From Syntrophomonadaceae bacterium (GTDB taxonomy: Bacteria; Bacillota; Dethiobacteria; DTU022), in NCBI GenBank assembly GCA_003554615.1, contig PWGX01000027.1, positions 38,619-102,618 on the forward strand: 64,000 bases of DNA. Reading direction: 5' to 3'. The notes below the pieces were generated by a model. That model had not been told where the DNA came from. It saw only the letters and a program-made list of their open reading frames with translations, and did not search any database. Of the stretch, positions 5,480 through 32,993 are shown in pieces; the first letter of the stretch is position 1; every line of letters starts with the position of its first letter. Position numbers and translations under genes: made by a program.

Positions 5480-5688
5480 TTGAATAGCGCTACCTTCGAT
5501 CCATTTTATCTAAGGGTTGCCTCTTTGGGTGAGCTAGGGTAAATGGACGTCAGGGTACAGGTGGAAACGGCTGTGCCTCCCGTTGCGGAAAGAAGGATTG
5601 TTCGGATCTGACTGAGCATAATCGCATTTTCCAGCGGGAACTGCGATTTTTTTATGATTCAGATCCTGGGAGGGGAGTATCACCGGCC
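5480..5688 (+). ncRNA. candidate Moco/tungsten-cofactor riboswitch in tupA 5'UTR
   Basis: Long untranslated leader of a tungstate transporter operon. It contains …GUGCCUCCCGUUGCGGAAAGAAGGA…, which resembles conserved elements recalled for the Moco RNA motif. The structure was not folded and no covariance model was run. Confidence 0.3.
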
Positions 5689-6564: not shown

Positions 6565-6592
6565 GCTCAATCCATCTGGAGGTATATAAAAA

Positions 6593-15567: not shown

Positions 15568-17580
15568 TTAACGCCCGGTGTAAAAAATGACAACCAGCAC
15601 AGCGCCAAGCAGCAGGGCCAGGATCAGCTGGTCAAAATTCAGGTTCTTTGTAGTCCACTCGACTGGGTTGAAGCGAAGCCGACGGTTGATGGCGCCTTCC
15701 TCCTCTTCATCATGGCCGCCCTCCGATCTGTCGGCCATCCGGCGCATCGCTTCACCTGTTTTCAGGTATCCATCATCTATGCTTTCATCTAACCTCCGGG
15801 AACGGTCGGCCAGGCTCCGGGCCGCATCACCCGTCCTGGTATACCCTTCATCAATAGCCTGATCCAGGTAGCGGGTCCGATCGGCCAAGCCACGGCCGAT
15901 CTCGGAAGACCGTTGAAAGGCACTGTCAATCCCTTTATCCAGGGTGGTTATATACTGGCAGAACTGGTACAAATTCTGCCCGGTTTTCATGTAAAAGTTG
16001 TCAACAGATGAATCGACAGCAGTCCCGTACTGGCAGAGGCGCTTATACAGGGCTTTGCCCAGGGGATTAAAAATCATGTATTCGACGCTTACCCAGGGCG
16101 GCAAATGGATCCCGCGCTGTAAAATCGCAGCCAGGTTAAGGAAAACCAGAAGGCCTGCTAAAGCCAGCCTGACTGCACCCCAAATCCCGTCAAAGGTGTA
16201 GATCCCCACCACTTTTGAGGCATAGGGTATGATCGGGGCGATCATCTGTGGATAGACACCGAGTATAATACAGAAGGCTGCCGTCCCAATGATTGCCAGG
16301 ATGCTTGTAATCGGAATCTTTCTGTGAATTTTTGCCCTTCCTTTAATAAAACCAAAACCGATCAGTTTGCAGAAAGAAGCTGCCGTGCCGATGCTGGCTA
16401 CCATCAACATCGTTTCGGCCGGCCCCATATCATAAAAAGCATACTTAATCAGGTATTTGCTGACATAGCCGTTAAAAAGCGGGAACCCTGAAATGGCCAG
16501 GGCCCCTACAATACCACCGATTGTAGCCAGAGGCATTGCTTTCCAGATACTTTCTTTTTCCTGTTCTTCTTCTTCTGAATCAACATGGGTCAAGTCATGC
16601 AAATCTTCTGTATTGGTAGCGTAAAAAACCGCCCCCACGCTCATAAACAGCAGCGCCTTATAAAGCATATGGTTAACCACATGCAGAAGGGCCCCGTCGG
16701 TGGCCAGCTCCGTGGCCAGGCCTACCCCGGCCACCATGTAACCGACCTGGCTGATAATATGATAGGAGAGGAGGCGGCGCATGTTATGCTGGAGCATGGC
16801 CATGGTCACACCGGCCAGGGCCATGGCAGCACCCATGTACATAATTATTTCGCTCGGGGGTAAAATCCTGGCAATGGCAAAAACTCCGATCTTTGTCGTC
16901 AGCCCGGCCAGGATAACACTGGACGGAAAGTTGGCCGAAGGATATCCCCGGGCTACCCATAAATGAAAAGGCAGGAATGCCGCTTTAAAGCCAAAACCGA
17001 CGATGAAGAAAGCCAGGCCAGCCTCGGGTTTGGTCAGCACAAAACTCTGCGCCTGCTCGTAGTGGAGCAGGATCCCCAGTAAGACTATCAGCCCCCCGGC
17101 CAGGTGAAAAGAAAGGAAATATAAACCGGCCATCAAGGAATCGGGGGTTTTCCGGAGCAGGATTAAACCAGCTGTAGACAGGGTAAGCATTTCCCAGAAA
17201 ATAAAGAGGGTGACAAAGTTGTCTGAAAAAACAACCCCAACGGCGCTGGCCAGGGCTATCAGGGCTGCGGCCTGTTCGCTCGGCCTTGACAGCTGCAGCC
17301 CGTAAAGCAAAGCAAAAGCTCCGACCAGGGTAAATCCAAAAACGGCAATCCTGCTGTATTCATGTTCGCTAAACGACACCGGGGCCAGAACAACATCCCC
17401 GAACAATACTGCATAACCCAGCGTTGCTTCCGTCAAATCGTAGTAAGCTAAAAACAGCAGGGCCCCGATTACTCCAAGCATTAAAATATATCGCATCAGC
17501 CTGGGTCCGAATACAACACCCGGAACCAGTATTATGGGTAGCGCTATACCTGTTATCACAAAGATATCGATCCTAATCAC
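15568..17580 (-). CDS. NuoL/MrpA-type antiporter-like membrane subunit, paralogue L3, with repeat-containing C-terminal tail
   Basis: 670 aa. Proton-conducting-antiporter family motifs (…RLLSYHIISQVGYMVAGVGL…). About 14 TM helices, then a hydrophilic tail and a final TM helix. The tail carries three near-repeats (GLADRTRYLDQAIDEGYTRTGDAA / SLADRSRRLDESIDDGYLKTGEAM / RMADRSEG) and ends …KNLNFDQL…TGR. Confidence 0.8.
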   Translation of the reverse strand: MIRIDIFVITGIALPIILVPGVVFGPRLMRYILMLGVIGALLFLAYYDLTEATLGYAVLFGDVVLAPVSFSEHEYSRIAVFGFTLVGAFALLYGLQLSRPSEQAAALIALASAVGVVFSDNFVTLFIFWEMLTLSTAGLILLRKTPDSLMAGLYFLSFHLAGGLIVLLGILLHYEQAQSFVLTKPEAGLAFFIVGFGFKAAFLPFHLWVARGYPSANFPSSVILAGLTTKIGVFAIARILPPSEIIMYMGAAMALAGVTMAMLQHNMRRLLSYHIISQVGYMVAGVGLATELATDGALLHVVNHMLYKALLFMSVGAVFYATNTEDLHDLTHVDSEEEEQEKESIWKAMPLATIGGIVGALAISGFPLFNGYVSKYLIKYAFYDMGPAETMLMVASIGTAASFCKLIGFGFIKGRAKIHRKIPITSILAIIGTAAFCIILGVYPQMIAPIIPYASKVVGIYTFDGIWGAVRLALAGLLVFLNLAAILQRGIHLPPWVSVEYMIFNPLGKALYKRLCQYGTAVDSSVDNFYMKTGQNLYQFCQYITTLDKGIDSAFQRSSEIGRGLADRTRYLDQAIDEGYTRTGDAARSLADRSRRLDESIDDGYLKTGEAMRRMADRSEGGHDEEEEGAINRRLRFNPVEWTTKNLNFDQLILALLLGAVLVVIFYTGR

Positions 17581-17623
17581 TCCATTACTGATGGTAGTTT
17601 GTTGTATTTTATGGTTACTAATG

Positions 17624-17655
17624 TTTTAGACGATCATAGCTTAAAAGTCAACCAA
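17624..17655 (-). repeat. conserved ~32-bp intergenic block upstream of paralogue L3 (promoter-like TTGACT-17-TAAAAC on minus strand); second copy at 19805-19836 upstream of L2
   Basis: tgttttagacgatcatagcttaaaagtcaacc (17624-17655) versus tgttttagacgataaaggctttaaagtcaacc (19805-19836). Duplicated together with the paralogous genes. Confidence 0.6.
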
Positions 17656-17690
17656 TGCAAAACATCAGCGTTTTCATAAAGATATACATA

Positions 17691-19724
17691 TCAGTTTCCG
17701 TATAAAAACACAATAAAGAGGATCACCCCTAACATAAACACCAGCAGCAGGTTGTCGAAATTCAGGTTTTTAATAGACCATTGCTCCTGATCCCACCAGA
17801 AAAAGCGCTTAAAATGTTCTTTTAAAAGTCGGTCCCGATCCAGTCCTTTACCGTAAACACAGTATGCCGATTGACCCGCCTCATCATGGGCCGGGTCAGG
17901 GATTTCTTCCATATCGCTTGAGTAATACTCAGCATACTTGTCTTCTTTATCGGCATGCTCGTAAAATTGTCCCAGGGCCATATCATTGATATTTGTTTCC
18001 CGTAAGAAGAATGACAGGACCAGCTGCGGGATAGGTTGAATAATAAGTCTTTGCATACAAAGTATGGGTGGAGGAGTCCATTCAAACCAGCCCCTGGTCG
18101 ATGCCGGCAGGTAAATAAACAGGGCCAGCAGGGTTACCAGCACCATTTTGCGCAGGGGATACCACTCAAAAAAACCGAACCCGTAAAGGTTGGCAATGCC
18201 GTAATCGCTGAACTCCAGCAGCTGTGCCCCGGGTACCAGCAGCCGTTCCAAAAGAAAGTTGGGGAAAATGCCCACTACCAGCACCAGGGCGGCAAAAACA
18301 ACCATTACAAAGTTGGCTGAAAGCGGAAGCTTGTAGTCCCGATCCAGTTTTTCCGGCACCGGGCCAAGAAACACCCCCTGAAAAAGCTTTAAGAAATAAC
18401 AAATCGTTAAAGCGCTGGTGATGAAGAAAAAGCGCTCGGCGACATAAATGCCGTAAATATCAAAGTGCTTGTAGGACTCCAGCATGGCATCGTGAATCAA
18501 AGTTTTGCTGGCAAAACCGTTAAATCCTGGAATGCCGGCGATGCCCAGGGCGGCGATTACAAAAACAACTGTTACCAGAGGCATCTTCCTGGCCATGCCG
18601 CCCAGACGGGATAAATCCTGTTCGTGGGTCAGCATGTAAACGACCCCGATCATGGAAAAGAGCCCGGCCTTGAAAACAGCATGATTGGCGATGTGATATA
18701 GAGAACCGGTAAAACCCATAGCTCCTTCTAAGCCCATAAACACGGCCACGCCAAGACCGGCGGCAATATATCCCATCTGGCTGATGCTGCTGTAAGCTAA
18801 AATTCTCTTGGCATTGCTTTGCAGCAGTGCCATCAAAGCCCCGGCCAGCATGGTCACAATCCCGATCCACATCAGGATATAGCCGCTGTTAAAGATAAAG
18901 GACCAGTCGGCGGTACTGCCCTCACCTGCAGGCCGGAACAGGATCAGGCTGACTCTCAGGATACCGTAAGCCCCGGCCTTGATCATAATCCCCGACAGCA
19001 GGGCGCTGGCCGGCGAAGGGGCCACGGGGTGGGCCAACGGAAGCCAGATGTGCAGGGGCACCAGGCCGGCTTTAATGCCAAAGCCAATCATAAAAAGAAC
19101 CAGGATGGCCAGGCGCTGCGCTCCCAGCTCTTCAAGCGCTGGAACCATGGCCAGGTGTCCGATATTGCCGTACACCAGAAGGAGGCCAAAGAAAAGCGAA
19201 AGGCCGCCAATTATAGCCATGTAAAGATACAGAGAACCGGCCTGCAGGGCTTCCCGGTCCTGCTTGTGGATAACCAAAACCAAAGAGCTAAATGTCATAA
19301 TCTCAAAAAAGATAAACAGTAAAAAAAAGTCGCCGGCAAATACAATCCCGAGCATAGCTCCCAGTGTAAAAATCAGGAAGCTGTAGTAGCGACGCCGGTT
19401 ATGCTCATAATCCATGTAAGAGAATGAAAATAAAATAGCCAGAAAATAAACCAGGGTGATCAGGACGGCAAAGACCCAGCTGATAATATCAATGCTAAAT
19501 AAAAGGCTAAACTGCAAGAATTCGATCAGGTCGCAGCCAACTTCCCCAACGAGAACATAAGGTAGGAGCCAGATTACACCGGCCAAAGAGAATAACGAGG
19601 CTAAAATAGAAACCACTTTACGAACCAGCATCTGATTTTCAGGGAAAAAGTACAGCACTATCCCGGTCAACATGGGAACCAGAACCAGGTAGAGGGGAAT
19701 ATATGTGGTAAATGTAACCTCCAC
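17691..19724 (-). CDS. NuoL/MrpA-type antiporter-like membrane subunit, paralogue L2
   Basis: 677 aa. Motif LAYSSISQMGYIAAGLGVAVFMG. Roughly 75% identical by eye to paralogue L1 (19890-21920). C-terminal tail ~110 aa hydrophilic, then …SIKNLNFDNLLLVFMLGVILFIVFLYGN. Confidence 0.8.
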   Translation of the reverse strand: MEVTFTTYIPLYLVLVPMLTGIVLYFFPENQMLVRKVVSILASLFSLAGVIWLLPYVLVGEVGCDLIEFLQFSLLFSIDIISWVFAVLITLVYFLAILFSFSYMDYEHNRRRYYSFLIFTLGAMLGIVFAGDFFLLFIFFEIMTFSSLVLVIHKQDREALQAGSLYLYMAIIGGLSLFFGLLLVYGNIGHLAMVPALEELGAQRLAILVLFMIGFGIKAGLVPLHIWLPLAHPVAPSPASALLSGIMIKAGAYGILRVSLILFRPAGEGSTADWSFIFNSGYILMWIGIVTMLAGALMALLQSNAKRILAYSSISQMGYIAAGLGVAVFMGLEGAMGFTGSLYHIANHAVFKAGLFSMIGVVYMLTHEQDLSRLGGMARKMPLVTVVFVIAALGIAGIPGFNGFASKTLIHDAMLESYKHFDIYGIYVAERFFFITSALTICYFLKLFQGVFLGPVPEKLDRDYKLPLSANFVMVVFAALVLVVGIFPNFLLERLLVPGAQLLEFSDYGIANLYGFGFFEWYPLRKMVLVTLLALFIYLPASTRGWFEWTPPPILCMQRLIIQPIPQLVLSFFLRETNINDMALGQFYEHADKEDKYAEYYSSDMEEIPDPAHDEAGQSAYCVYGKGLDRDRLLKEHFKRFFWWDQEQWSIKNLNFDNLLLVFMLGVILFIVFLYGN

Positions 19725-19889
19725 GGGCTAGATCACCTCATTATAAAGATAAATCTGTAAAAAAACCATAATCCATATTTTAATATAATTTTATTATTTA
19801 CTACTGTTTTAGACGATAAAGGCTTTAAAGTCAACCTGCTACTAAAAAGCGTGTTCTTGTTATCTTGAGTAACAGTGTCGATTGACCAA

Positions 19890-21920
19890 TCAATTGACGT
19901 ATAAAAACGCGATAAAAAGAATAACTGCCAGCACAAAAGCAAAAAGAAGGGTATCAAAACCTAAATTTTCCACGCGCCACTTACACTGATCCCACCGGGG
20001 AGAGCAATAAAAATCTTTTTCAAGATGCCTGCCCCGATCGAGTCCTTTGCCCGATATGTAGTAGGCAGATTGCCCCGTTTCATCATCAGCTGGATCCTGA
20101 ACTACTTCCATGTCGCTTAAATACTCAGTTTGTAAATTTTCTTTAACAGGATGCTCGTAAAACTGACCCAGGGCCATATCATTTACATTGATTTCCCTGA
20201 AAAGAAACTTCAAGACCAGATTCCACAGAGGCTCAAAAATTAGTTTTTGAATGCTCAGCCATGACGGCGGAGTCCAGTCAAACCAGCCCCTGGCAGACGC
20301 CGGCATGTAAATGAATAAGGCCAACAGAACAACAACCAGCGCTTTTTGCAAGGGGAACCATTCATAAAAATCAAACCCTGGCAGGTGCTCGATGTTATAT
20401 GCGCTAAAGTCCAACAACTGCGCTCCCGGTATAAGTAGCCGTTCCAGCAGCAGGTTCGGCAAAACCCCTACCCCCAAAACCAGAATGGCATAAACAACCA
20501 GGGCAATACTGGCTGAAACAGGCATTTTATAATCCTGGTCAAGTTTCCCAGGAACAGGGCCCAAAAACACCCCCTTAAACAACTTAATAAGGTAACAAAT
20601 CGTCAGGGCTCCAGCAATGATAAAAAAGCGTTCAGCAACAAAGATACCGTAAATATCATAATGCTTATAGGCTTCCAACATAGCATTATGAAGCAAAATC
20701 TTGCTGGTAAACCCGTTAAATCCCGGTATACCAGCGATTCCCAGGGCGGTAATTACAAAGGTAACCGTCACCAGGGGCATCTTTCTGGCCATCCCGCCCA
20801 GGCGGGAGAGGTCCAGTTCGTGGGTCAGCAAGTAAACAACCCCGATCATGGTAAAGAGCCCGGCCTTAAAAACAGTGTGGTTGGCAATGTGATAAAGAGC
20901 GCCGGTAAAACCTTTTGCTCCTTCCAACCCCATAAACACGGCCACACCAAGGCCGGCGGCAATATATCCCACCTGGCTGATACTGCTGTAGGCCAGAATC
21001 CTCCTGGTATTGCTCTGCAGCAAAGCCATCAAAGCCCCGCCAATCATAGTCACAATCCCGATCCACATCAGGATATAGCCGCTATTAAAAATAAAGATCC
21101 AGTCGGAGACACTGCCTCCATCTGCCGGCCGGAACAGGATCAGGCTGACCCTCAGAATACCGTAAATTCCGACCTTACTCATGATACCAGCCATTACGAC
21201 TGTAACCGGTGAGGGAGCCGCTGAATAAGCCGGGGGTGCCCATATATGAAACGGAACCAGGCCAATTTTTATCCCAAAACAAATCATGAAAAGGAATAAA
21301 ATAGGCAATCGCTGGGCTCCCAGCTCTTCAAGCACCGGGATCATGTCTAGATGACCACTTTTATCATATAAGAGCAGGATGGCAAATAACAATGCCAAAC
21401 CGCCTATAATATTCATGTACAGGTAAAGCGAACCTGCCTGCAAAGAATCACGGTCCTGTTTATGTATAACCAGGACAAATGAACTCAAAGTTAAAATTTC
21501 GAAAAAAATAAAAAACGAAAAAAAATCACCGGCGAAAACTACCCCCAGGATCGCACCAAGGGTAAAAAACAAGAAGCTGTAGTAGCGGCGCGGATTATGA
21601 TCCTGATCCATATAAGAAAAAGAAAACAATATAACCAGAAAATAGACCAGGGTAATCAGGCTCGCAAAAATCCAGCTGATTAGATCGATGCTGAAATAAA
21701 GCCCTAATTCCATGAATTTGGTCAGGCCACAGAAAATTTCACCTTGCAACACATAAGGAAGAAGCCAGATCACACCGATCATTGAAAACAAGGAGACAAC
21801 CATGGCTCCCACTTTGTGAATTAGCAATCGGTCTTTAGGAAACAAGTACAGCAATATCCCCGTCAACATGGGCAATAAGACCAGGTATAAAGGGACAAGT
21901 GTGTTAAATGTAACCACCAC
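19890..21920 (-). CDS. NuoL/MrpA-type antiporter-like membrane subunit, paralogue L1
   Basis: 676 aa. A tandem duplicate of paralogue L2: the sequences align along their whole length. Tail ends …RVENLGFDTLLFAFVLAVILFIAFLYVN. Confidence 0.8.
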   Translation of the reverse strand: MVVTFNTLVPLYLVLLPMLTGILLYLFPKDRLLIHKVGAMVVSLFSMIGVIWLLPYVLQGEIFCGLTKFMELGLYFSIDLISWIFASLITLVYFLVILFSFSYMDQDHNPRRYYSFLFFTLGAILGVVFAGDFFSFFIFFEILTLSSFVLVIHKQDRDSLQAGSLYLYMNIIGGLALLFAILLLYDKSGHLDMIPVLEELGAQRLPILFLFMICFGIKIGLVPFHIWAPPAYSAAPSPVTVVMAGIMSKVGIYGILRVSLILFRPADGGSVSDWIFIFNSGYILMWIGIVTMIGGALMALLQSNTRRILAYSSISQVGYIAAGLGVAVFMGLEGAKGFTGALYHIANHTVFKAGLFTMIGVVYLLTHELDLSRLGGMARKMPLVTVTFVITALGIAGIPGFNGFTSKILLHNAMLEAYKHYDIYGIFVAERFFIIAGALTICYLIKLFKGVFLGPVPGKLDQDYKMPVSASIALVVYAILVLGVGVLPNLLLERLLIPGAQLLDFSAYNIEHLPGFDFYEWFPLQKALVVVLLALFIYMPASARGWFDWTPPSWLSIQKLIFEPLWNLVLKFLFREINVNDMALGQFYEHPVKENLQTEYLSDMEVVQDPADDETGQSAYYISGKGLDRGRHLEKDFYCSPRWDQCKWRVENLGFDTLLFAFVLAVILFIAFLYVN

Positions 21921-21952
21921 GTGCTAAATCACCTCAATCGAACATTGGATTC

Positions 21953-23461
21953 TTAAAACCACCCTCCCTTTAATAAGAAGTCCGAGGTCATCTGGGACAA
22001 ATCAAATGGCACATTTATAGGTGACAGCCCGAAAATAACAGTGAAAATGGCCAGTATTATCATTGGGGCCAGCATCTTTGGGGGGACATCCTGGACACTT
22101 AATTTTAAAGCATGTCCCTGCTCCTCATCCCCGACCATCTCGAAAAAGGCGGGGACAATGATCGGCAGATAGTAAAGAGCGTTAAGCAAACTGCTGATTA
22201 AAAGCACAATGACATAGAAGGTAGCATTGGCATCAAGGGCCCCCAATCCCAGGGTCCATTTGCTCAAAAACCCGCTCAAAGGCGGAATTCCGATCATGGC
22301 CAGGGCAGCAATAGAAAAGCAGGCCATAGTGAAAGGCATTTCCCGGCCGATGCTGCCCAGCTCAGAAATAGTCCGTTTGCCGGTTTTCCATATGATCGCT
22401 CCTGCGGCAAGGAAGAGGCAGCTCTTCATGATAGCATGGCAAAAGATGTGAAACACGGCCCCAATGATGGCATTTTCATTGAGCACGCTCAAACCTAAAA
22501 GCACGTACCCCATCATCCCCACACTTGAATAAGCCAGGCGCCTCTTAAGGTCATTCTGGGTCAGGGCAACAGCGGAGCCCAGTAAAATAGTTATAACAGC
22601 CAGGACTCCCAGGACTATATCCCAGTTGTTAGTTTGCATAACTTCAATCGAAAAGGCGTTAAATATAACCCTGAACAAGCCGTAAGCCCCGGTTTTCAGC
22701 ATTACCCCGGAAAGGAGGGCGCTGGCGGGTGAAGGGGCAACCGGGTGGGCATCCGGGAGCCAGACGTGAAGCGGGAACATCCCGGCCTTCATCCCGAAGC
22801 CAATCAAGAAACACATAAAGGCCAGGAAAGCGATCAGGGTCCCTTCTTCTATAATTGATCCCACCCCGAACGATACAGTTCCGCCAAGCTCAAAGGTAAT
22901 GATAATGCCAAAGAAGAGGGCCAAACCGCCGATAATGGTCATAACCAGGTACTTGTAGCCGGCTTTCAGGGCCTCTTCCGTTTCCTCGTGAACTACCAGG
23001 ATATAAGAAATAAGAGACATTAACTCAAAAAACACAAAGAGAGTAAAAAAGTCGCCGGCCAGGAAAATACCAAGACAGCTGCCCAGAGTAAACATCAAAA
23101 CCGGGTAATAACGGCTCCCCCCGTGTTCTTTCGCCATGTAGTCAATAGAATAGATCGTGCTCAGAAGCCAGATGAAGGAAGCAATAGCTGTCAGGCTAAA
23201 ACTAAGAACATCAAGCCTGATCGAAATTTCCAGATTCGGCAATATCTCAAAGAATGTATGTTGAACAATGCCGCCTCTCACTACAAAAGGATAGAGAGTC
23301 AGGACCAGCAGGAAAGTAATTGCGCTTGTCACCACGGCCAGGATATCGCGTAGTTTTTCTGAGCGGTCGCTTACCGACATCAGGATCGGGGTCATTATGA
23401 TTGGGAAAAAGATTACAACCAGGATTACTGTTATTGCTGTCGCTTCATCCACCGAAGCCAC
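21953..23461 (-). CDS. mrpD: MrpD/NuoM-N-type antiporter-like subunit (paralogue D2)
   Basis: 502 aa, 14 TM helices. Motifs …RLAYSSVGMMGYVLLGL… and HPVAPSPASALLSGVMLKTGAYGLFR. Confidence 0.8.
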   Translation of the reverse strand: MASVDEATAITVILVVIFFPIIMTPILMSVSDRSEKLRDILAVVTSAITFLLVLTLYPFVVRGGIVQHTFFEILPNLEISIRLDVLSFSLTAIASFIWLLSTIYSIDYMAKEHGGSRYYPVLMFTLGSCLGIFLAGDFFTLFVFFELMSLISYILVVHEETEEALKAGYKYLVMTIIGGLALFFGIIITFELGGTVSFGVGSIIEEGTLIAFLAFMCFLIGFGMKAGMFPLHVWLPDAHPVAPSPASALLSGVMLKTGAYGLFRVIFNAFSIEVMQTNNWDIVLGVLAVITILLGSAVALTQNDLKRRLAYSSVGMMGYVLLGLSVLNENAIIGAVFHIFCHAIMKSCLFLAAGAIIWKTGKRTISELGSIGREMPFTMACFSIAALAMIGIPPLSGFLSKWTLGLGALDANATFYVIVLLISSLLNALYYLPIIVPAFFEMVGDEEQGHALKLSVQDVPPKMLAPMIILAIFTVIFGLSPINVPFDLSQMTSDFLLKGGWF

Positions 23462-23526
23462 CTCCAGGGTTCATTATATAGTTCAATTAAGTACACGGCA
23501 GTATTTTAAAACAGTCCCAGGGATTG

Positions 23527-25803: not shown

Positions 25804-25821
25804 GGCTAACTACCCCCCTTG

Positions 25822-26157
25822 CTAATGGGATTTCAGGGTTGCTATTACCGCGGCAATGGCCACAAAAAGGACCGTCGCTTCACCCAGGGTGTCGAAAGCG
25901 CGGTAATCGATAATAACACTGCTTACGATATTGACGGCACCGGTATCGGTTATCCCCTGTTCCATGTATCGGGCCGGTATTTCATTGAATACCGGGTTAG
26001 TTGGATCCCCAAAAGGCGGCATTTCCGCAACAGTAAAACTGAAGAAAAATCCAATCAGACCGACCAGCAAAATTGTAAACACACCACGAGCCTGGAGGCG
26101 CAATAGATAGCGCATGGCAAAGATGGCTGCGATTATGATAAACAGAATATCTTCCAC
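25822..26157 (-). CDS. MbhE-like small membrane protein (MrpA C-terminal-domain-like; IDYRAFDTLGE motif)
   Basis: 111 aa. Motif NIVSSVIIDYRAFDTLGEATVLF is typical of the MrpA C-terminal / MnhB-related domain. Confidence 0.55.
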   Translation of the reverse strand: MEDILFIIIAAIFAMRYLLRLQARGVFTILLVGLIGFFFSFTVAEMPPFGDPTNPVFNEIPARYMEQGITDTGAVNIVSSVIIDYRAFDTLGEATVLFVAIAAVIATLKSH

Positions 26158-26181
26158 TCAAATATCCCCCCTACAGGAACC

Positions 26182-26442
26182 TTATTCAGCCCGCCTGGTT
26201 TTACTGATAGCCGCTATCAATAGCAGGGTCGTTACCCCGGTGCCCAGGGCCGCTTCAACCATGGCCACGTCGGGTGAGCTGAGCTGCTGCCATACAATAG
26301 CCATAATCAACCCAAAAGAGGCAAAAACGATCACAGCGCTAAGCATATCCCGGATCTGGGCCACCGCGATAGCACAAACAATAAGAAACAGTAACAACAA
26401 AGCATTTAAAACTTCAGTCAGTACTTCGGTCATCTGGCTCAC
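26182..26442 (-). CDS. MbhD-like small membrane protein (DUF4040-like; MrpA C-terminal-domain-like)
   Basis: 86 aa with 2-3 TM helices. Positioned like MbhD in mbhABCDEFGH-type clusters. Confidence 0.5.
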   Translation of the reverse strand: MSQMTEVLTEVLNALLLLFLIVCAIAVAQIRDMLSAVIVFASFGLIMAIVWQQLSSPDVAMVEAALGTGVTTLLLIAAISKTRRAE

Positions 26443-26746
26443 TCCTGCCGATAATGGGGGTGATCCCGGTTGAATAGGCAGCTCTGGCTATAACGTGGGC
26501 AGCCGTCGGGTTGGTGATTAAAATAAAAATAATTAACAGGGCCAGCCTGATCGCCACCGCCAGTTCACTTTGCAAAGCGAGGGACAACAAAACCAGGCCC
26601 GCACCCAGGGTGTCGCACTTGGTCGTCGCGTGAAGGCGGTTATAAACATCGGGCAGCCTCAGCAGGCCGATAGTGGCAACCGCCAGGAAAAATATTCCCA
26701 CGATAAATGATAATATCGACAATATATAAAGTCCCGTATTCAGCAA
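26414..26746 (-). CDS. mrpG: Mrp antiporter subunit G
   Basis: Motif LRLPDVYNRLHATTKCDTLGAG matches the MrpG/MnhG signature (LPDVFTR.HAATKA.TLG). Confidence 0.75.
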   Translation of the reverse strand: MLNTGLYILSILSFIVGIFFLAVATIGLLRLPDVYNRLHATTKCDTLGAGLVLLSLALQSELAVAIRLALLIIFILITNPTAAHVIARAAYSTGITPIIGRSEPDDRSTD

Positions 26747-26754
26747 AGTTTCGA

Positions 26755-27036
26755 TCAGTCCAGGGCTCCTTTCTCCAGGTACTTGGCCACGCCAATTGTG
26801 GTAATAAAGCCCATCAGGGCATAGACCATGGCAATATCAAGAAAATAAACCTGTTCATAAATCCGGGCGATCAGGGTAATAATGATCAAAGTATAGGTCG
26901 TAATGATATTGATGGCCACTACCCTGTCTGGAGCCGTCGGGCCGGCCAGGGCCCTAATCATGGAAAAGAAAATCATGAGCATGACCAGGATCGCCCCTAT
27001 AGTATACGTATAATCCAATATTTGTTCAAAAATCAT
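26755..27036 (-). CDS. mrpF: Mrp antiporter subunit F
   Basis: 93 aa. Motif GPTAPDRVVAINIITT (MrpF DRVVA motif). Confidence 0.7.
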   Translation of the reverse strand: MIFEQILDYTYTIGAILVMLMIFFSMIRALAGPTAPDRVVAINIITTYTLIIITLIARIYEQVYFLDIAMVYALMGFITTIGVAKYLEKGALD

Positions 27037-27530
27037 CCCTCATCACGCTCCATCTGCTGAAGCCTGGCAATGGGATGCCAGGTCTGAACCTCTTCACCGC
27101 TTTCTATGGTCAAAGCATGAATCAGAAAATCCTTCCCATCTGCCAGGACCGTTAAAGTCCCGGGGCACATGGTAATCGAATTGCCCAGAAGCACCCGGCT
27201 GGCCATGCTTTCTATTTCCACCCTCAGCGGGACCATATTCGGGACTATGGGCATTTTTGGGTGCAAAACTATATAGGCTACCTGGAAATTAGCTATAAAA
27301 ATATCTCGGAGCAGTTTAAAGAAATAGCCCAATATCCAAAGAACAGTTTTAAAGGTAACAGGCGGCCTGTCTTCGATTGTAATGAGCAGGTTGCGGTTAA
27401 AATAAACCACAAAAGCAGAAGCGGCAAACCCGACCGCCATCTGGGGCCAGTCAAACCGACCGCTGATAGCCACCCAGAAAGCAAACAGGACCAGGGTAAT
27501 CCCAATATAATTCAACCAGTTCTTACTCAT
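27033..27530 (-). CDS. mrpE: Mrp antiporter subunit E
   Basis: 165 aa. N-terminal TM helices plus a MrpE-like C-terminal region. First gene after rnfB (88-bp gap). Confidence 0.65.
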   Translation of the reverse strand: MSKNWLNYIGITLVLFAFWVAISGRFDWPQMAVGFAASAFVVYFNRNLLITIEDRPPVTFKTVLWILGYFFKLLRDIFIANFQVAYIVLHPKMPIVPNMVPLRVEIESMASRVLLGNSITMCPGTLTVLADGKDFLIHALTIESGEEVQTWHPIARLQQMERDEG

Positions 27531-27618
27531 CTTAATCAGCCACCCGGCAGTTTAATTATATAAACCCGAAAGTATAATAATATTTTCACATGCTCTTAAA
27601 TTTAATATAACAATCCCG

Positions 27619-28482
27619 CTAACCATCTTCTTCAGATACTGCAGCAGCGGTTGGTTGGTCGAGATCAGCCAGTTTCTTTGGTATTGCCGCACGCGGATAA
27701 ATGGTTACCGGTGGACATACAGGGACGCATTTTCCGCAGTCGTCGCACTTGTCAAGATCGATTACGGCCAGGTTGTCATCCATCTCAATTGCTTCCTGGG
27801 GGCAAATTTTGACACAGGCCCTGCAGGCTATACAACCCACCGAGCAGACCTTTGATACGCTTTTACCCCTATCATGGGAACTGCACAATACCAGGTGCCC
27901 CTGGTTGGACCGGCGGGGCAGGGTTTTGATCAAATCCCGCGGGCAGGCATTCACACAGAGGCCGCACCCGGTACATGCTTCCTGATCTACAACGGGCAGT
28001 CCGTGCGGGCCGATTTCTATCGCTTCAAATGGGCAGGCCCAAGCACAGTCACCCAACCCCAGGCAACCGTAAGTACAGGCCTTGAAACCGCCGTAAAAGC
28101 GTCCGGCAACAGCACAGTTTTTTACTCCTTCGTATATAAACCGGTCAGGCGCTTTTTCCTTGTCGCCAATGCAAAAAACCGTCGCCACCAGCGACTCTGT
28201 TTCGGCAAAATCAATCCCTAGTTCAGCAGCCAGAGCTTTTGCCGTCTCGGTCCCTCCCGGAATGCAGCCGGAAGGATTTACTTCACCTTTAACTACGGCC
28301 TCGGCAAACTGGGAGCAGCCGGCATAACCGCAGGCGCCACAATTGGCTCCGGGCAAAATATCTTTAACTTTGTCCACCCTCGGATCTACCTTGACGGCAA
28401 ACACTTTTGCGGCCAGGGAAAGAAGTATTCCGAAAACCAGGCCGATCAGGCCCAGGGCGATGATTGCATATATTATTTGCAC
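27619..28482 (-). CDS. rnfB: Rnf complex subunit B (polyferredoxin)
   Basis: N-terminal TM helix, CGACGYAGC motif, and multiple 4Fe-4S CxxCxxCxxxCP motifs. Confidence 0.9.
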   Translation of the reverse strand: MQIIYAIIALGLIGLVFGILLSLAAKVFAVKVDPRVDKVKDILPGANCGACGYAGCSQFAEAVVKGEVNPSGCIPGGTETAKALAAELGIDFAETESLVATVFCIGDKEKAPDRFIYEGVKNCAVAGRFYGGFKACTYGCLGLGDCAWACPFEAIEIGPHGLPVVDQEACTGCGLCVNACPRDLIKTLPRRSNQGHLVLCSSHDRGKSVSKVCSVGCIACRACVKICPQEAIEMDDNLAVIDLDKCDDCGKCVPVCPPVTIYPRAAIPKKLADLDQPTAAAVSEEDG

Positions 28483-28544
28483 GGCTTATTTCACCTCGTA
28501 AAATTAGTGACTCAAGCTTTTCAGCATTAATCATTTAAGGCAGG

Positions 28545-29126
28545 CTACAGGGTAAGCATACCCCTGAAACCTTGAAAAGCCAGGGATAGAATCCCCGCTG
28601 TAATCAAAGTCACCGCCGAACCCTTTAGTACATCCGGCACATCAGCCAGTTCCAGGCGTTCCCTGATCCCGGCCATGATCACAAGGGCCAGGGAAAAACC
28701 GATAGAAGCTGCGATTCCAAACACCACCGCTTCAATAAAAGCAAATTCTTCCCTTACCGCCAAGAGAGTTACAGCCATAATGGCACAGTTGGTGGTAATC
28801 AGGGGCAGGAAAATACCAAGTCCCTGGTACAGGGTCGGGCTGATCTTGCGCAGTGTGGTTTCAACAAGCTGAACCAGGGAGGCAATGACCAGGATAAATG
28901 TAACAATTTGCAAATACTCCAGGTTTAAAGGGATAAGGACAAAAGTATAGAGCAGCCAGGTAACCAGAGTGGCCATGCTCATTACAAAAATAACCGCCAT
29001 ACTCATCCCCACTGCGGTTTCCATCTTTCTCGAGACGCCCAAAAAGGGGCAAATCCCGAAGAAACGCTGCAACACAAAGTTTTCTACCAGGATATAGATA
29101 AATATTATCGATAACAGTCGTTCCAT
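28545..29126 (-). CDS. rnfA: Rnf complex subunit A
   Basis: 193 aa, 6 TM helices. RnfA/NqrE family (…GICPFLGVS…). Confidence 0.9.
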   Translation of the reverse strand: MERLLSIIFIYILVENFVLQRFFGICPFLGVSRKMETAVGMSMAVIFVMSMATLVTWLLYTFVLIPLNLEYLQIVTFILVIASLVQLVETTLRKISPTLYQGLGIFLPLITTNCAIMAVTLLAVREEFAFIEAVVFGIAASIGFSLALVIMAGIRERLELADVPDVLKGSAVTLITAGILSLAFQGFRGMLTL

Positions 29127-29198
29127 ATTAACCTCCTGCCTCCGGTAGTACTATCTTCCATTTCCTCATTTCTTTAACCTGCATAGGGCGGTATATTA

Positions 29199-29825
29199 TC
29201 AAATATTTAACTTTTTAAAAAGCACATTCGCAAGACCAAGCAAAAGCCCCAGGGCAATGAAAGCTCCGGGCGGCTGGCCAAACAAACCCATTGGTTCAAA
29301 ACCTTCCCCAAACAGCAGGATGGCACTTTCAGGATCGGGCCCCATGATCGTCCCTTGCCCCGCTACTTCGCGGACCAGGGCCAGAATACCCAGGGCCAGG
29401 GTAAAACCTATCCCAACCCCGACTCCATCGACCAGCGAACGCAGGACAGGTTTCTTGCTGGCAAAAGCTTCGGCCCGCCCCAGGATAACGCAGTTCACCA
29501 CGATCAGGGGCACAAATACACCCAGGGCTTCATAAAGGGCCGGTTGAAAAGCCTGCAAAACCATTTCAACCATCGTAACAAAAGTAGCTATAACCACAAT
29601 AAAACAGGGAATCCTGACCTGGGCGGGAATATAGTTCTTCAGGCTGGCAATCACTACGTTGGACGCAATTACAACCGCTGTTGTCGCCAACCCCATTCCC
29701 AGGCCGTTAATAAAATAAGCGGTAACCCCGAGAACCGGGCACATCCCCAGCAGTAAACGGAACACCGGGTTTTCCCTGATTATTCCCCGTGACAAGTCAT
29801 CAACATAAGGATTATGTTCTGCCAT
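29199..29825 (-). CDS. rnfE: Rnf complex subunit E
   Basis: 208 aa. RnfE/NqrD family (…LLGMCPVLGVT…). Confidence 0.9.
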   Translation of the reverse strand: MAEHNPYVDDLSRGIIRENPVFRLLLGMCPVLGVTAYFINGLGMGLATTAVVIASNVVIASLKNYIPAQVRIPCFIVVIATFVTMVEMVLQAFQPALYEALGVFVPLIVVNCVILGRAEAFASKKPVLRSLVDGVGVGIGFTLALGILALVREVAGQGTIMGPDPESAILLFGEGFEPMGLFGQPPGAFIALGLLLGLANVLFKKLNI

Positions 29826-30670
29826 TAGTTATCACCGCCTCCGCTTCCGCTTTCTGGCGCATCCTCCAGGGCGTTTATCACTGCGGTTATAATTCTTTCG
29901 GCGCTTAAAGTCGCACCGGTCTGCACATCTACTTCAAGGCTTTGCTCCTCGATAATTTTTTCAGGAATCTCCGGGTAAGCATCGACAAAGTATGCTTCTG
30001 TTTCATTATGTTCAATGACCTCTATGTTTTGAATTCGCCCATCGCTCAGTTCAACTTCTACCGTAAGGGGACCGTAAGTGCCCTCAACGCTGCCCCGGTA
30101 TACGCCGTCAGCCAATCCTTCGAGTGCAAAGGCCTTCCTCTCCATGTCCAGAATATTTTCGCCGATAGTGATCACGGTGCGCCTGATTGAGTTGATCATC
30201 GAACCGGTACTCATAGTAGCCCCACTGACGGCATCAACATCCTCGCCTTCCTGAATTGGATCTTCAAAGCTTTTACCGATAAACTGCTCCTGGAAATCGT
30301 CGGTGGTAATAACATCACCGATTCCCGGGGTCTCGGAGTGGGAGATAACCCGGATTCCTATTATTTCAGTATCGGTATCAACAGCCAGGTTATAGGTAAT
30401 TGTCCCTTCATAACCCTGGGTTTTAACCGTAGCCATGATCCCGAGCTTTTCGCCATCCTGGTCGTAAACCAGGTCAAACTGATCGCCTTCGATTTCACGG
30501 GTTTCATATTCATTAATGTCCGGGAAAAACCTCTCCAGGGCTTCTAAATACTCCCGCTGTTCCTTCTCCCGGATCACCGGCTCGGTTATATTGTGCATCC
30601 CGGTTAGAAGGGCCGCCGATATTATGGCAACCGCAGCCAGGGTTACGGACAAACGCAGTATATTATGCAC
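29825..30670 (-). CDS. rnfG: Rnf complex subunit G (FMN-binding, flavinylated)
   Basis: N-terminal TM helix. FMN_bind domain with flavinylation motif DAVSGATMSTGS. ApbE is the cognate flavin transferase. Confidence 0.9.
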   Translation of the reverse strand: MHNILRLSVTLAAVAIISAALLTGMHNITEPVIREKEQREYLEALERFFPDINEYETREIEGDQFDLVYDQDGEKLGIMATVKTQGYEGTITYNLAVDTDTEIIGIRVISHSETPGIGDVITTDDFQEQFIGKSFEDPIQEGEDVDAVSGATMSTGSMINSIRRTVITIGENILDMERKAFALEGLADGVYRGSVEGTYGPLTVEVELSDGRIQNIEVIEHNETEAYFVDAYPEIPEKIIEEQSLEVDVQTGATLSAERIITAVINALEDAPESGSGGGDN

Positions 30671-31637
30671 TCTTTTTCACCCCCCCGAAACGCTGGGGAA
30701 TCGTAAAGTTATCTATAATCGGAGTTACCGCGTTCATGAGTAAAATGGCAAAGGTAACCCCTTCCGGCAGAGCTCCCCACAACCTGATCAGCATCGTAAT
30801 CAGGCCGCAGCCGATTCCGAAAATAAGCCGGCCGGCCGGAGTAACAGGTGTGGTAACAAAGTCGGTGGCCATATAGATAGCACCGATCATGACCCCTCCT
30901 GTCACAACATGGAACAAACCGGTCATGAAAATATTAGCATAAAATCCTCCACCAAATAATACACCCAGGATAAAAACAGTACCGATAAAACCACCCGGGA
31001 TCCGGTAATCAATATGGCCTTTATAAACCAGCCAGAGACCCCCGATCAAAAGGGCCAGGGCGGAGGTTTCTCCCAGGCACCCGGGAATATTGCCGATAAA
31101 CATTTCCGGCAGGCTGAAAGTCACCGCTTTTTCCGGGGCAGCCAGGACAGTAGCCCCGGTTACAACGGCCGCATCATATCCAAAAGCAAAAGGCTGCGGC
31201 GAGGGCCATATATCACCGGCCATGTGACCGCCCCAGGAAACAACCAGGATGGCCCGGCCAACCAGGGCCGGGTTGAAAATATTGTAGCCAATCCCGCCAA
31301 AAACTTGCTTGCCGATAATAATGGCTGAAGCCGAACCGACGACCACCAGCCACCAGGGCGCGGCGGCCGGCAGGGTCAGAGCCAGGAGCAACCCGGTAAC
31401 CGCCGCACTGCCGTCACTGAATATATCACTTTTACGAAGCCAGATCGCTTCTGCCAGCATCGCTGCAGCTATCGCGATAAGCATAGTCAGAAGGGCCCGA
31501 TATCCAAAAAGCAATACTGCCATCAGGGCCGCGGGGAAAAGAGCGATCAAAACATCGACCATCACGCTCTGAACCGATTCTACCGATCTTATGTGCGGTG
31601 ATGACGATACGATCAGTTTTTCGTTTATGACCATCAC
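30663..31637 (-). CDS. rnfD: Rnf complex subunit D
   Basis: 324 aa polytopic membrane protein of the RnfD/NqrB family. Confidence 0.9.
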   Translation of the reverse strand: MMVINEKLIVSSSPHIRSVESVQSVMVDVLIALFPAALMAVLLFGYRALLTMLIAIAAAMLAEAIWLRKSDIFSDGSAAVTGLLLALTLPAAAPWWLVVVGSASAIIIGKQVFGGIGYNIFNPALVGRAILVVSWGGHMAGDIWPSPQPFAFGYDAAVVTGATVLAAPEKAVTFSLPEMFIGNIPGCLGETSALALLIGGLWLVYKGHIDYRIPGGFIGTVFILGVLFGGGFYANIFMTGLFHVVTGGVMIGAIYMATDFVTTPVTPAGRLIFGIGCGLITMLIRLWGALPEGVTFAILLMNAVTPIIDNFTIPQRFGGVKKSA

Positions 31638-31658
31638 ATCCTTTCCCGGGTTGCGGAA

Positions 31659-32993
31659 TTATTTATTTTTCCTTTTCATAATTTCATTTTTACCGATCCT
31701 GATCCACTGGACCAGGGGAATTTTAGAAGGGCATATATACGAACAGCACCCGCATTCAAAACAGTCGAGAGCATAAAGTTTTTCAGCCCTCCTGTAATCG
31801 CCGTGTTCTGAGGCCTGGGCTATGGATGTGGGCATCAGGTTCATTGGACAGACACTAACGCACTTGGCACACCTGATACAGGGGCTGCTTTCGGCAAGAT
31901 AAACATCTTCATCGGTCAGGGCCAGGATTCCCGATGTCCCCTTAATGACCGGTATATCGGCACTGGGCTGGGCCAGCCCCATCATCGGGCCGCCCACAAC
32001 CACCTTCAGGGTGGATTCGCTTATACCGCCGCAAAAGTCAAGGGCCTCAGAGGCCAGTGTCCCCAGCCTGGCCTGGACATTGGCCGGTTTGGCAACACCG
32101 GAACCGGTCACGGTCAGGACCCGTTCCACCAGGGGTTTTCCTTCACGAATAGCCTGGGTGATGGCCGCCGCTGTGCCGACATTATGGTTAACTATCCCAA
32201 CTTCCATGGGCAGAGCCCCCGCCGGGACAACCCGGCCGGTGGTGACATAAATTAGCATCTTTTCAGCACCCTGCGGATACTTGGTCGGCAGGGTGCAAAC
32301 CCTGATATTTTCTTCTTCGGCCACCATGCTCTCCACCTGTTTATGAGCATCAGGTTTGTTATCTTCAATACCGATAATTCCTTCCGAAGCGCCCAGGGCT
32401 TTCATCATCGCCTTTAAACCAAAGACGATTTCTTCCGTTTTTTCAAGCATAACCCTGTGATCGGCGGTCAAATATGGTTCACATTCGGCGCCGTTTATAA
32501 TCACCACATCGATCGGTTTGTCTTCAGGGGGTGAAAGCTTGACATGGGAGGGGAAAGTGGCTCCTCCGAGCCCGACAATACCGGCTTCACGGACTATCTT
32601 GCGGATATCGTCGGCGGAAAGATCTTCCAGGCTGCCGGCCGGCTTAATATTTTCATCCCATTCGTCGCGGCCGTCCGATTCTATGGTCACCGCATTGATT
32701 TTCATGCCCAGGGGGTGGTTGTACGGGCCAATATCAACCACCGTACCCGAGATCGGGGCATGGACGGGAGCGGACACAAAACCCTTATTATCGCCAAGTT
32801 TCTGGCCTGCCTTGACCTCAATGCCTTTTTCTATCTTTTCCACATCGGCCAAAAGCTCGCAGGGTGCACCAATATGCTGCTGCATCGGCACCACCACTTT
32901 TTGCGGCAATGGCATTTTCACAATGGCCAGTGTGGAGGTAATTTCTTTACTATATACCGGATGAACGCCTCCCCTGAATGAAAACTTGGCCAT
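31659..32993 (-). CDS. rnfC: Rnf complex subunit C (NADH-binding, 2x[4Fe-4S])
   Basis: 444 aa. Motifs CIRCAKCVSVCP and CFECGCCSYICP. RnfC/NqrF-like NADH/FMN-binding fold. Confidence 0.9.
   Translation of the reverse strand: MAKFSFRGGVHPVYSKEITSTLAIVKMPLPQKVVVPMQQHIGAPCELLADVEKIEKGIEVKAGQKLGDNKGFVSAPVHAPISGTVVDIGPYNHPLGMKINAVTIESDGRDEWDENIKPAGSLEDLSADDIRKIVREAGIVGLGGATFPSHVKLSPPEDKPIDVVIINGAECEPYLTADHRVMLEKTEEIVFGLKAMMKALGASEGIIGIEDNKPDAHKQVESMVAEEENIRVCTLPTKYPQGAEKMLIYVTTGRVVPAGALPMEVGIVNHNVGTAAAITQAIREGKPLVERVLTVTGSGVAKPANVQARLGTLASEALDFCGGISESTLKVVVGGPMMGLAQPSADIPVIKGTSGILALTDEDVYLAESSPCIRCAKCVSVCPMNLMPTSIAQASEHGDYRRAEKLYALDCFECGCCSYICPSKIPLVQWIRIGKNEIMKRKNK

Follow-up and report, generated by a model that had tools for sequence, protein, structure and literature searches.

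We analysed a window of 64,000 nucleotides of DNA from a Syntrophomonadaceae bacterium (contig PWGX01000027.1), in which the genes of an Rnf complex are followed on the same strand by an enlarged set of Mrp antiporter genes and then by apbE. Reading the sequence of this array together with that of its relatives, we consider it probable (about 0.6) that Rnf and Mrp form separate complexes in the membrane, which are co-expressed as one sodium-cycle unit. In this unit, the set of proton channels of Mrp would be enlarged, and apbE would serve the maturation of Rnf. The linkage itself is visible in published genomes and has been noted once in passing. On an explicit rnf-mrp operon, we found in the literature only one sentence about Natranaerofaba carboxydovora and the adjacent locus tags of Candidatus (Ca.) Contubernalis alkaliaceticus. 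In the latter, Rnf is HUE98_01685-01710 and the multisubunit antiporter is HUE98_01720-01765, and the paper makes no comment on their adjacency. We believe that four points are new: the strict conservation of the linkage over a deep clade, the modular anatomy of the array, an element in the spacer between rnfB and mrpE, and the occurrence of as many as five antiporter-like subunits, including three of the NuoL type, in a free-standing Mrp.

The gene identities were obtained from the open reading frame (ORF) listing of the window and from Pfam scans, and for some subunits also from NCBIfam models with their cut-offs (Table 1). On the minus strand, the order of transcription is rnfCDGEAB, mrpE, mrpF, mrpG, an MbhD-like gene, an MbhE-like gene, mrpB, mrpC, the MrpD-like genes D1 and D2, the long NuoL/MrpA-like genes L1, L2, and L3, and finally apbE. 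A preliminary description of this DNA had named rnfCDGEAB and a set of 12 genes of the mrp/mbh type, and every one of them was confirmed by Pfam. The gap of 88 bp that it gave between rnfB and mrpE is exact. However, it had put all internal gaps at 120 bp or less, and the L1-L2 gap is 165 bp; L2 and L3 are 110 bp apart, and L3 and apbE 55 bp. Its statement that apbE comes after all of the antiporter genes is right for the order, but the gene lies outside the interval 15568-32993 in which it had been included.

The Rnf subunits C, D, G, E, A, and B are all encoded in one cluster and have their characteristic domains. RnfG contains two domains that bind flavin mononucleotide (FMN), with one flavinylation motif each (SGAT at 149 and TGAT at 251), and RnfD contains one such motif. 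According to a review, RnfG and RnfD are flavinylated by ApbE. The prerequisites for covalent FMN are thus found together, namely the S/T-G-A-T motifs in the two subunits and apbE shortly after L3. In most relatives, apbE likewise comes after the last antiporter gene; in the loci L084, L089, and L104 it is displaced or absent. Two variations of the extracytoplasmic flavin-binding part were seen in relatives: the RnfG of locus L083 (6249-7721) has 490 amino acids, and Ca. Syntrophonatronum (locus L172, 2274-2621) has an additional FMN_bind gene of 115 amino acids ahead of rnfC.

The Mrp module is, by homology, a complete and self-sufficient cation/proton antiporter of a family with a split MrpA and the gene order of the MBH hydrogenase. 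Pfam homologues were found for all of the Mrp parts (the N-domain and the C-domain of MrpA, and B, C, D, E, F, and G), and the Proton_antipo_M domain occurs five times. In the window, MrpA is split into a NuoL-like subunit and the MbhD-like and MbhE-like genes. In the known homology map, MbhA to MbhH correspond to MrpE, F, G, A (C-terminal), B, C, and D, and the order E, F, G, MbhD, MbhE, B, C, D of the window is that of mbhA-H. The preliminary description had seen that this order mirrors mbhABCDEFGH, and this was borne out. Furthermore, subunits of Pyrococcus furiosus MBH and MBS, ahead of those of Bacillus Mrp, are the best solved relatives of the small subunits and of D2.

The residues expected of proton channels are retained in all of the large subunits. 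E146, K225, K256, H338, H342, K346, and K401 (D2 numbering) are invariant in D1, D2, L1, L2, and L3. These columns are the Glu of transmembrane helix (TM) 5, the Lys of TM7, the Lys of TM8, the His/Lys of TM11, and the Lys of TM12. In Mrp, the proton-path residues are TM5 Glu, TM7 Lys, TM8 Lys/His, TM11 His/Lys, and TM12 Lys, and E687 and E780 of MrpA are the proposed Na+ sites. Glutamates equivalent to E687 and E780 are present in the window (PDVAMVEA in the MbhD-like and DTLGE in the MbhE-like subunit), and the motif DYRAFDTLGE of the MbhE-like subunit is invariant across the clade. In addition, every gene is under purifying selection. By the Nei-Gojobori method, the ratio of nonsynonymous to synonymous divergence (dN/dS) between the window and locus L007 ranges from 0.03 to 0.28. 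For instance, it is 0.03 for D1, 0.18 for L2, and 0.28 for L1, the highest value of the antiporter genes. None of the large subunits reached an NCBIfam equivalog cut-off.

Clusters of the same gene order also occur apart from rnf. The genome scan with L3 revealed them in many phyla, with E, F, G, MbhD/E/B (often fused), C, D, D, and one long subunit of ~600 amino acids. No rnf match was found in the fetched DNA upstream of mrpE of these clusters (~5 kb where present). For instance, the cluster of L016 (a Desulfotomaculum metagenome-assembled genome, MAG) lies between an acetyl-CoA synthetase gene (acs) upstream and a histidine kinase gene downstream, that of L085 comes after hisG, and that of L088 lies downstream of a metK-ahcY pair on the opposite strand. 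Since clusters of the same order stand alone elsewhere, the module needs no redox partner beside it.

These observations bear on a different explanation: a complex I-like or hydrogenase-like respiratory enzyme, with its redox subunits encoded at another place, would have the mrp-like genes as its membrane arm. In their order and in their small subunits, these genes do resemble MBH/MBS. In addition, the paper on Ca. Contubernalis alkaliaceticus lists its antiporter genes both as an antiporter and as the putative membrane part of a NADH:quinone oxidoreductase. However, no homologue of the NuoH/MbhM, NuoA/J/MbhI, NuoB, NuoD, or NuoI type was found in the array or among the scanned ORFs of at least 150 amino acids in the 64-kb window, and MrpE, F, G, and a terminal subunit of the MrpA/NuoL type are all present, as in a free-standing Mrp. 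Redox-module genes (NuoH/MbhM and NuoB/D/I types) were not seen beside the related mrp clusters either. We therefore find it hard to credit that these genes are such a membrane arm. The preliminary description had already reported that NuoB/C/D/H/I and hydrogenase subunits are absent, which agrees with our scan of the same ORFs. It had taken this to mean that the usual redox partner is missing, and this interpretation was not supported: a Mrp antiporter needs no such partner, every Mrp part is present, and the relatives stand alone.

The three long subunits have different histories. L1 and L2 are 71% identical, with a synonymous divergence (dS) of 1.38, and both have the NuoL/MrpA layout, that is, a core of 14 TMs, TM15, a hydrophilic stretch of ~110 amino acids, and a C-terminal TM. 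L2 is the orthologue of the single long subunit (710-815 amino acids) of deep-branching relatives and is 51-56% identical to the copies of L083, L084, and L089. L3 is only 27% identical to L1 and L2. The AlphaFold (AF2) model of L3 has a mean predicted local distance difference test score (pLDDT) of 80, with >90 in the core; it contains long helices (residues 499-555 and 569-617) and, at 649-669, a TM, and its C-terminal part is of low confidence. Among the best Foldseek matches of this model, MrpA, NdhF, and NuoL (600-690 aligned columns) are interleaved with MrpD and MbhH (~510-560 columns). L3 is thus modelled with the fold of MrpA and NuoL, extended by a long helix and an anchoring TM at the C-terminus.

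Residues 523-622 of L3, in its C-terminal helix, form four exact tandem repeats of 25 residues (D-x-x-[IV]-D-x-x-[YF] ... L-A-D-R-[ST]-x-x-L), and its orthologues have three to five copies. The repeat number was considered as a "ruler" for the number of L genes and was rejected, because four repeats occur with one, two, or three L genes, and five occur in some loci with two. Relatives of L3 also occur as solitary genes (40-51% identity) with no other mrp gene beside them, in L170 (10001-11860; Natranaerofaba carboxydovora CP054394.1) and L171 (10001-11665; a Dethiobacter sp. MAG). These solitary genes hint at a recruitment of L3 to the operon's end. In a further lineage, locus L013 (1-9342; Bacillota MAG E21_metabat.bin.75) has five antiporter-like genes in a row in another order than the window: L3-like, D-like, D-like, L3-like (50% identity), and an L2-like gene for 814 amino acids, followed by a ribonucleotide reductase gene. 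Its upstream part is cut by the contig end.

The set of long subunits varies among the rnf-linked loci. Deep branches have one subunit of the L2 type (710-815 amino acids), L009 and L108 have one of the L3 type, and most crown loci have L2 and L3. The set of L1, L2, and L3 was found in the window and in L007 only. The five antiporter-type channels of the preliminary description are therefore real for the window, where all five have intact channel residues, but they are not a general feature, and the relatives have three or four.

The linkage of rnf and mrp extends far beyond the window. The preliminary description had held that a lack of this arrangement in related genomes would speak against its proposal; we found rnfB followed by mrpE on the same strand in 32 loci in all. 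Among the close relatives, twelve species-level MAGs of "Syntrophomonadaceae"/Bacillota, mostly from soda-lake sediments, have the mrp-apbE part, and they have rnf too where the upstream DNA suffices. The relatives whose MrpE homologues are 50-54% identical retain valS-folC-rnfCDGEAB-mrp. In these, apbE follows directly in L083 and after an inserted gene of the opposite strand in L084, and no apbE was seen before the contig end in L089. A locus with an MrpE homologue of 38% identity retains rnfA-rnfB-moaC-mrp, and no rnf was found at those of 39-40% identity. In the metagenome scan, which was based on an alignment of the MbhE-like subunit, rnf preceded mrpE in 18 of the 18 loci with at least 52% identity and upstream DNA, and no locus from L116 on, most of them at 50% identity or less, had it there. 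The deepest rnf-linked loci are 55-57% identical to the window in ValS and 52% in RnfC.

One of these loci, L172, carries a protein that NCBI names Ca. Syntrophonatronum acetioxidans. It contains folC, FMN_bind, rnfCDGEAB, moaC, mrp with one long subunit of 710 amino acids, apbE, NusG_II, Gx, maf, radC, and mreB. In the published analysis of the draft genome of Ca. Syntrophonatronum acetioxidans, this arrangement was missed: only RnfC, D, and G were reported, and Mnh was on a separate contig. The clade is a deep anaerobic lineage of Bacillota whose identified members are soda-lake organisms. To judge by locus tags, Ca. Contubernalis alkaliaceticus belongs to it as well. Its rnf-linked Mrps form one sequence group, in which the D1 subunits are at least 54% identical to each other and at most 38% identical to those of unlinked clusters. 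Thus, the linked Mrps probably have one origin.

The flanks of the array are conserved as well. In the window, valS-folC lies upstream, a 237-bp AT-rich spacer precedes rnfC, and apbE is followed on the same strand by a Gx/Hpre_diP_synt_I gene, maf, and radC. In the clade, valS-folC and maf-radC(-mreB) are retained down to ~55% ValS identity. The linkage could then be a historical accident: mrp was inserted once between rnfB and apbE and retained in a rarely rearranged region (valS-folC ... maf-radC-mreB), and the two complexes are used and regulated independently. The conservation of the whole neighbourhood fits this account, and so does the single sequence group, which is consistent with one event. 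In addition, moaC is tolerated at the junction, and the rnfB-mrpE spacer and the DNA before apbE carry a conserved element and promoter-like matches. However, the junction has outlived the gain or loss of moaC, the displacement of apbE, and the addition of L genes, which argues for some selective value. Furthermore, Rnf and Mrp act on the same sodium/charge cycle, published genome analyses interpret both together, and there is no terminator between their genes. On balance, we regard a historical accident as a serious rival, though a somewhat unlikely one.

The junction between rnfB and mrpE is the loosest in the array. Across the loci, the median spacers range from -8 to 51 bp inside rnf and from -29 to 25 bp inside mrp, and the median of the rnfB-mrpE spacer is 114 bp (range 76-715 bp). 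In eight deeper-branching loci, moaC, a gene of molybdenum cofactor biosynthesis, lies between rnfB and mrpE; it is absent from the window. The 88-bp spacer of the window contains a 20-nt element (Table 1) that is unique in the window and had 0 matches in 100 shuffles. This element is kept in ~10 crown-group loci whose spacers have otherwise diverged, and it overlaps a sigma-70-like match of 9/12 (27599-27571). Its candidate roles are those of an internal promoter, an operator, or a site of RNA processing. By eye, no convincing match to Rex, CRP/FNR, sigma-54, or Fur-family boxes was found in it.

The other operon signals are as follows. The terminator scan found no terminator-like hairpin in any spacer of the array. 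The promoter scan gave 39 promoter-like matches in all (25.5 +/- 5.6 in shuffles), which are too weak to decide the operon structure. Some of them lie in the spacers rnfB-mrpE, D1-D2, and L2-L3 and immediately ahead of apbE, with scores that are also reached by chance. The preliminary description had named strong promoters and terminators between rnf, mrp, and apbE as evidence that would tell against its proposal. The spacers are free of terminators, but they do hold promoter-like matches, with scores at the level of chance.

The same junction is informative about a physical Rnf-Mrp supercomplex. In such a supercomplex, Mrp would dock on RnfA/D/E, the transfer of electrons from ferredoxin to NAD+ would be coupled to five extra channels, and the ion/electron ratio of Rnf would be altered. 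The adjacency is strict, because all members of this Mrp subfamily with upstream DNA are preceded by rnf. Moreover, apbE comes after mrp and not straight after rnfB in most loci, all genes are on one strand with no terminator in the spacers, and redox modules have repeatedly recruited Mrp-like modules in evolution. However, other points speak against it. The hydrogenase module of MBH occupies the place of MrpA in Mrp, and the Q-module of complex I sits at the opposite end, beside the NuoN/K/J-like subunits. The Mrp of the window is complete, and to judge from homology both of these docking ends would be capped, the one by MrpA/NuoL-like subunits and the other by MrpE/F/G/B. In addition, the array has no connector of the NuoH/MbhM/MbhI type. 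Neighbouring genes of rnf, and likewise those of mrp, overlap or lie almost end to end, but rnfB and mrpE do not; the spacer between these two is the longest and most variable and accommodates the unrelated moaC. The number of L subunits changes from one to three among close relatives, and apbE is displaced or absent in three loci. To our knowledge, there is also no structural precedent for an interface between Rnf and an antiporter.

We thus consider the supercomplex improbable. The broader proposal that Rnf and an enlarged Mrp are a single machine with three to five attached channels, a third independent wiring besides those of complex I and the MBH type, appears to us slightly more doubtful still. 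If it were true, reverse electron transport at the thermodynamic limit would have at its disposal an ion/electron ratio that is variable and much higher. The preliminary description had left the choice between a supercomplex and a co-expressed ion-gradient unit. The latter part is plausible and in line with the passing remark on Natranaerofaba carboxydovora. For physical contact or an altered ion/electron ratio of Rnf, nothing was found in favour: Mrp is complete, and the junction is loose and tolerant of moaC.

We propose the following mechanism for two co-expressed complexes in one sodium cycle. Rnf would use the flow of electrons from ferredoxin to NAD+ to export Na+ and to build a membrane potential, and it could also run in the reverse direction in syntrophic oxidation. 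The published genome papers on relatives assume Na+ for Rnf. The membrane potential would in turn drive Mrp to take up several H+ for each Na+ expelled. As a result, in surroundings of ~pH 10 and molar Na+, the cytoplasm would stay less alkaline and poor in sodium. Three antiporter-like subunits (D1, D2, and one long L) may have been the ancestral set, and the lineage of the window may have gone from three to five through the addition of L3 and the duplication of L2. If each large subunit is one proton path, as in current models of Mrp, more large subunits would give a higher H+/Na+ ratio.

The transport by Mrp is electrogenic, its stoichiometry is unsettled, and 2 H+ per Na+ have been proposed for Bacillus. 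For illustration, we made a calculation with assumed values (a membrane potential of -150 to -180 mV, an external pH of 10, an internal pH of 8.5, and a tenfold Na+ gradient). On these values, the export of one Na+ would cost 209-239 mV, and each H+ taken up would yield 61-91 mV. Thus, ~3 or more H+ per Na+ would be needed, which is above the proposal for Bacillus. A family that has three antiporter-like subunits, enlarged to five in the window, would suit this demand if every large subunit forms one proton path.

Syntrophy had been suggested as the setting of this array in the preliminary description. The link is compatible with our results, since syntrophic oxidisers of acetate are among the relatives. 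However, the main use of Mrp is the homeostasis of alkaline pH and sodium, and haloalkaliphily is for this reason the simpler driver.

Several observations weigh against two co-expressed complexes with an enlarged channel set. First, since the flanks are conserved too, the conservation of the junction could reflect a stable chromosome region and a single ancestral event instead of selection for linkage. Second, the conserved element and the promoter-like match in the rnfB-mrpE spacer mean that mrp may be regulated separately. Third, the number of L genes has no obvious relation to habitat; Ca. Syntrophonatronum acetioxidans, known from haloalkaline culture, has only one long subunit. The soda-lake origin refers to the identified members (Ca. 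Syntrophonatronum acetioxidans and the soda-lake "Syntrophomonadaceae" MAGs). Finally, Asn43 of MrpF stands where Bacillus pseudofirmus MrpF has Asp38, the proposed residue of cytoplasmic Na+ uptake. At this position, N, G, or A is found throughout the split-MrpA family, whether linked to rnf or not, and Asp is found in MBH, MBS, and Bacillus Mrp. The exchange was also considered as a marker of the rnf-linked clade and was rejected, because the position varies family-wide.

The features of the array and of the rnfB-mrpE junction are collected in Table 1.

Table 1. Features of the rnf-mrp-apbE array and of its rnfB-mrpE junction. Positions are those of the window, except where another locus is named; aa, amino acids.
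Feature	Position	Strand	Evidence and remarks
rnfC, 444 aa	31659-32993	-	Pfam RnfC_N, Complex1_51K, SLBB, and 4Fe-4S dicluster domains
rnfD, 324 aa	30663-31637	-	Pfam NQR2_RnfD_RnfE, 364 bits; flavinylation-type motif VVTGATV at residue 160
rnfG, 281 aa, unusually long	29825-30670	-	Pfam FMN_bind over two stretches; NCBIfam rnfG, 108 bits (cut-off 102)
rnfE, 208 aa	29199-29825	-	Pfam Rnf-Nqr, 220 bits
rnfA, 193 aa	28545-29126	-	Pfam Rnf-Nqr, 189 bits
rnfB, 287 aa	27619-28482	-	Pfam FeS (PF04060) and 4Fe-4S; NCBIfam PRK07118.1-2 RnfB, 256 bits (cut-off 252)
20-nt conserved element GCATGTGAAAATATTATTAT (also written GCATGTGAAAWWWTTATTAT)	27574-27593	-	Inside the rnfB-mrpE spacer
mrpE / MbhA-like, 165 aa	27033-27530	-	Pfam MNHE
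mrpF / MbhB-like, 93 aa	26755-27036	-	Pfam MrpF_PhaF; best solved relatives are subunit F of MBS and MBH
mrpG / MbhC-like, 110 aa (longest ORF; 102 aa in the L080 gene call)	26414-26746	-	Pfam PhaG_MnhG_YufB
MbhD-like, first part of the MrpA C-terminal domain, 86 aa	26182-26442	-	Pfam MbhD; matches subunit D of MBH and MBS
MbhE-like, second part of the MrpA C-terminal domain, 111 aa	25822-26157	-	Pfam MbhE; matches MBH subunit E and MrpA C-termini
mrpB / MbhF-like, 147 aa	25360-25803	-	Pfam MnhB; NCBIfam NF006248, 106 bits (cut-off 92)
mrpC / NuoK-like, 123 aa	25005-25376	-	Pfam Oxidored_q2
D1, MrpD/NuoN-like antiporter-like subunit, 500 aa	23527-25029	-	Pfam Proton_antipo_M, 205 bits
D2, MrpD/NuoM/MbhH-like, 502 aa	21953-23461	-	Pfam Proton_antipo_M, 226 bits; best solved relative MbhH, E = 4e-69
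L1, NuoL/MrpA-N-like, 676 aa	19890-21920	-	Pfam Proton_antipo_M and Proton_antipo_N
L2, NuoL/MrpA-N-like, 677 aa	17691-19724	-	Pfam
L3, divergent NuoL/MrpA-like, 670 aa	15568-17580	-	Pfam Proton_antipo_M, 129 bits; nearest NCBIfam NF009310, 377 bits, below the cut-off of 564
apbE, flavin transferase, 384 aa	14358-15512	-	Pfam ApbE, 294 bits, full length
Gx-type membrane protein, Hpre_diP_synt_I family, 187 aa	13675-14238	-	Pfam PF07456; kept after apbE in relatives
moaC at the junction, L086	1767-2255		
moaC at the junction, L172	8181-8618		
moaC at the junction, L109, L111, and L112-L114			

Elsewhere in the window, the context genes of the preliminary description are all present: a fusion of 3-hydroxyacyl-CoA dehydrogenase and enoyl-CoA hydratase, a thiolase, Gdh, and subunits of a 2-oxoacid:ferredoxin oxidoreductase. 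The Rfam scan gave no match inside the array, and its sole match is a Moco (molybdenum/tungsten cofactor) riboswitch far away (5482-5611, plus strand, 58 bits). The riboswitch lies ahead of the genes of an ABC transporter (5689-8042, plus strand), of which the binding protein comes first and the permease second. The ORF of the ATPase (7551-8042) matches only positions 62-137 of the ABC_tran profile and looks 5'-truncated or frameshifted.

These results define a conserved Rnf-Mrp-ApbE unit in anaerobes that live at the energetic limit, as syntrophic acetate oxidisers at ~pH 10 and molar sodium. The genome papers on these organisms annotated the parts of Rnf and Mrp separately or incompletely. 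If the two complexes are indeed co-expressed, energy models of soda-lake syntrophs should take Rnf and Mrp as one sodium-cycle unit. Furthermore, it is unsettled what H+/Na+ ratio Mrp has and whether one proton passes through each antiporter-like subunit, and both questions are common to research on complex I. The clade provides a natural series of variants of one Mrp, whose antiporter-like subunits number three, four, or five in near-identical contexts, and in which the scaling of stoichiometry could be measured.

Among known systems, Natranaerofaba carboxydovora is a haloalkaliphilic anaerobic soda-lake member of Bacillota, like the identified members of the clade, and the same observation with the same functional reading was made for it: a Mnh complex was noted in one locus with a Na+-Rnf (Sorokin et al. 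2020, PMC8359318). That remark is one sentence, without an analysis of subunits, conservation, or copy number. The locus tags (ACONDI 00389-00396) span eight genes, probably fewer subunits than the 12 of the window. The solitary relative of L3 in L170 lies at another locus of this organism. The likeness rests on the description in that paper and not on sequence, and N. carboxydovora was not among the best 120 matches of the search with the MbhE-like subunit.

The Mrp of Bacillus pseudofirmus and Anoxybacillus flavithermus (7QRU, 6Z16) shares with the window every subunit, the Lys/Glu pairs, the Lys of TM12, and the equivalents of E687 and E780. It carries out electrogenic Na+/H+ antiport for alkaline pH homeostasis, and the same is expected of the window. 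However, in the window MrpA is split, the order is E-F-G-...-D and not A to G, there are five antiporter-like subunits and not two, and Asp38 of MrpF is replaced by Asn. The MBH and MBS of Pyrococcus furiosus (6CFW, 6U8Y) resemble the window more closely in gene order, as the first eight mrp genes follow mbhA-H, and in the small subunits and D2, of which they are the best solved relatives. In these complexes, however, a NuoH-like anchor and catalytic subunits of the NiFe-hydrogenase type or a related type replace the MrpA-like subunit, whereas the window has NuoL/MrpA-like subunits and no such anchor.

A partnership of Rnf and Mrp has also been proposed for Methanosarcina acetivorans, in which we take rnf and mrp to be at separate loci. 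In this archaeon, a Na+-pumping Rnf and Mrp were proposed to cooperate, with Mrp tuning the Na+/H+ ratio for ATP synthesis. Unlike the window, it has a canonical seven-gene MrpABCDEFG, and the proposed role is the balancing of gradients for a promiscuous ATP synthase and not alkaline pH homeostasis.

The Fdh-Mfh-Mnh cluster of Thermococcus onnurineus is a precedent for a Mrp/Mnh antiporter that is co-transcribed with a primary ion pump to convert gradients. For a change of ion stoichiometry by more antiporter-like subunits, complex I variants with an extra NuoM (the "2M" type; Chadwick et al. 2018) are a precedent. Both the "2M" complex I and the T. onnurineus cluster have redox modules of the NuoH type, whereas the neighbour of Mrp in the window is Rnf, from the unrelated Rnf/Nqr family.

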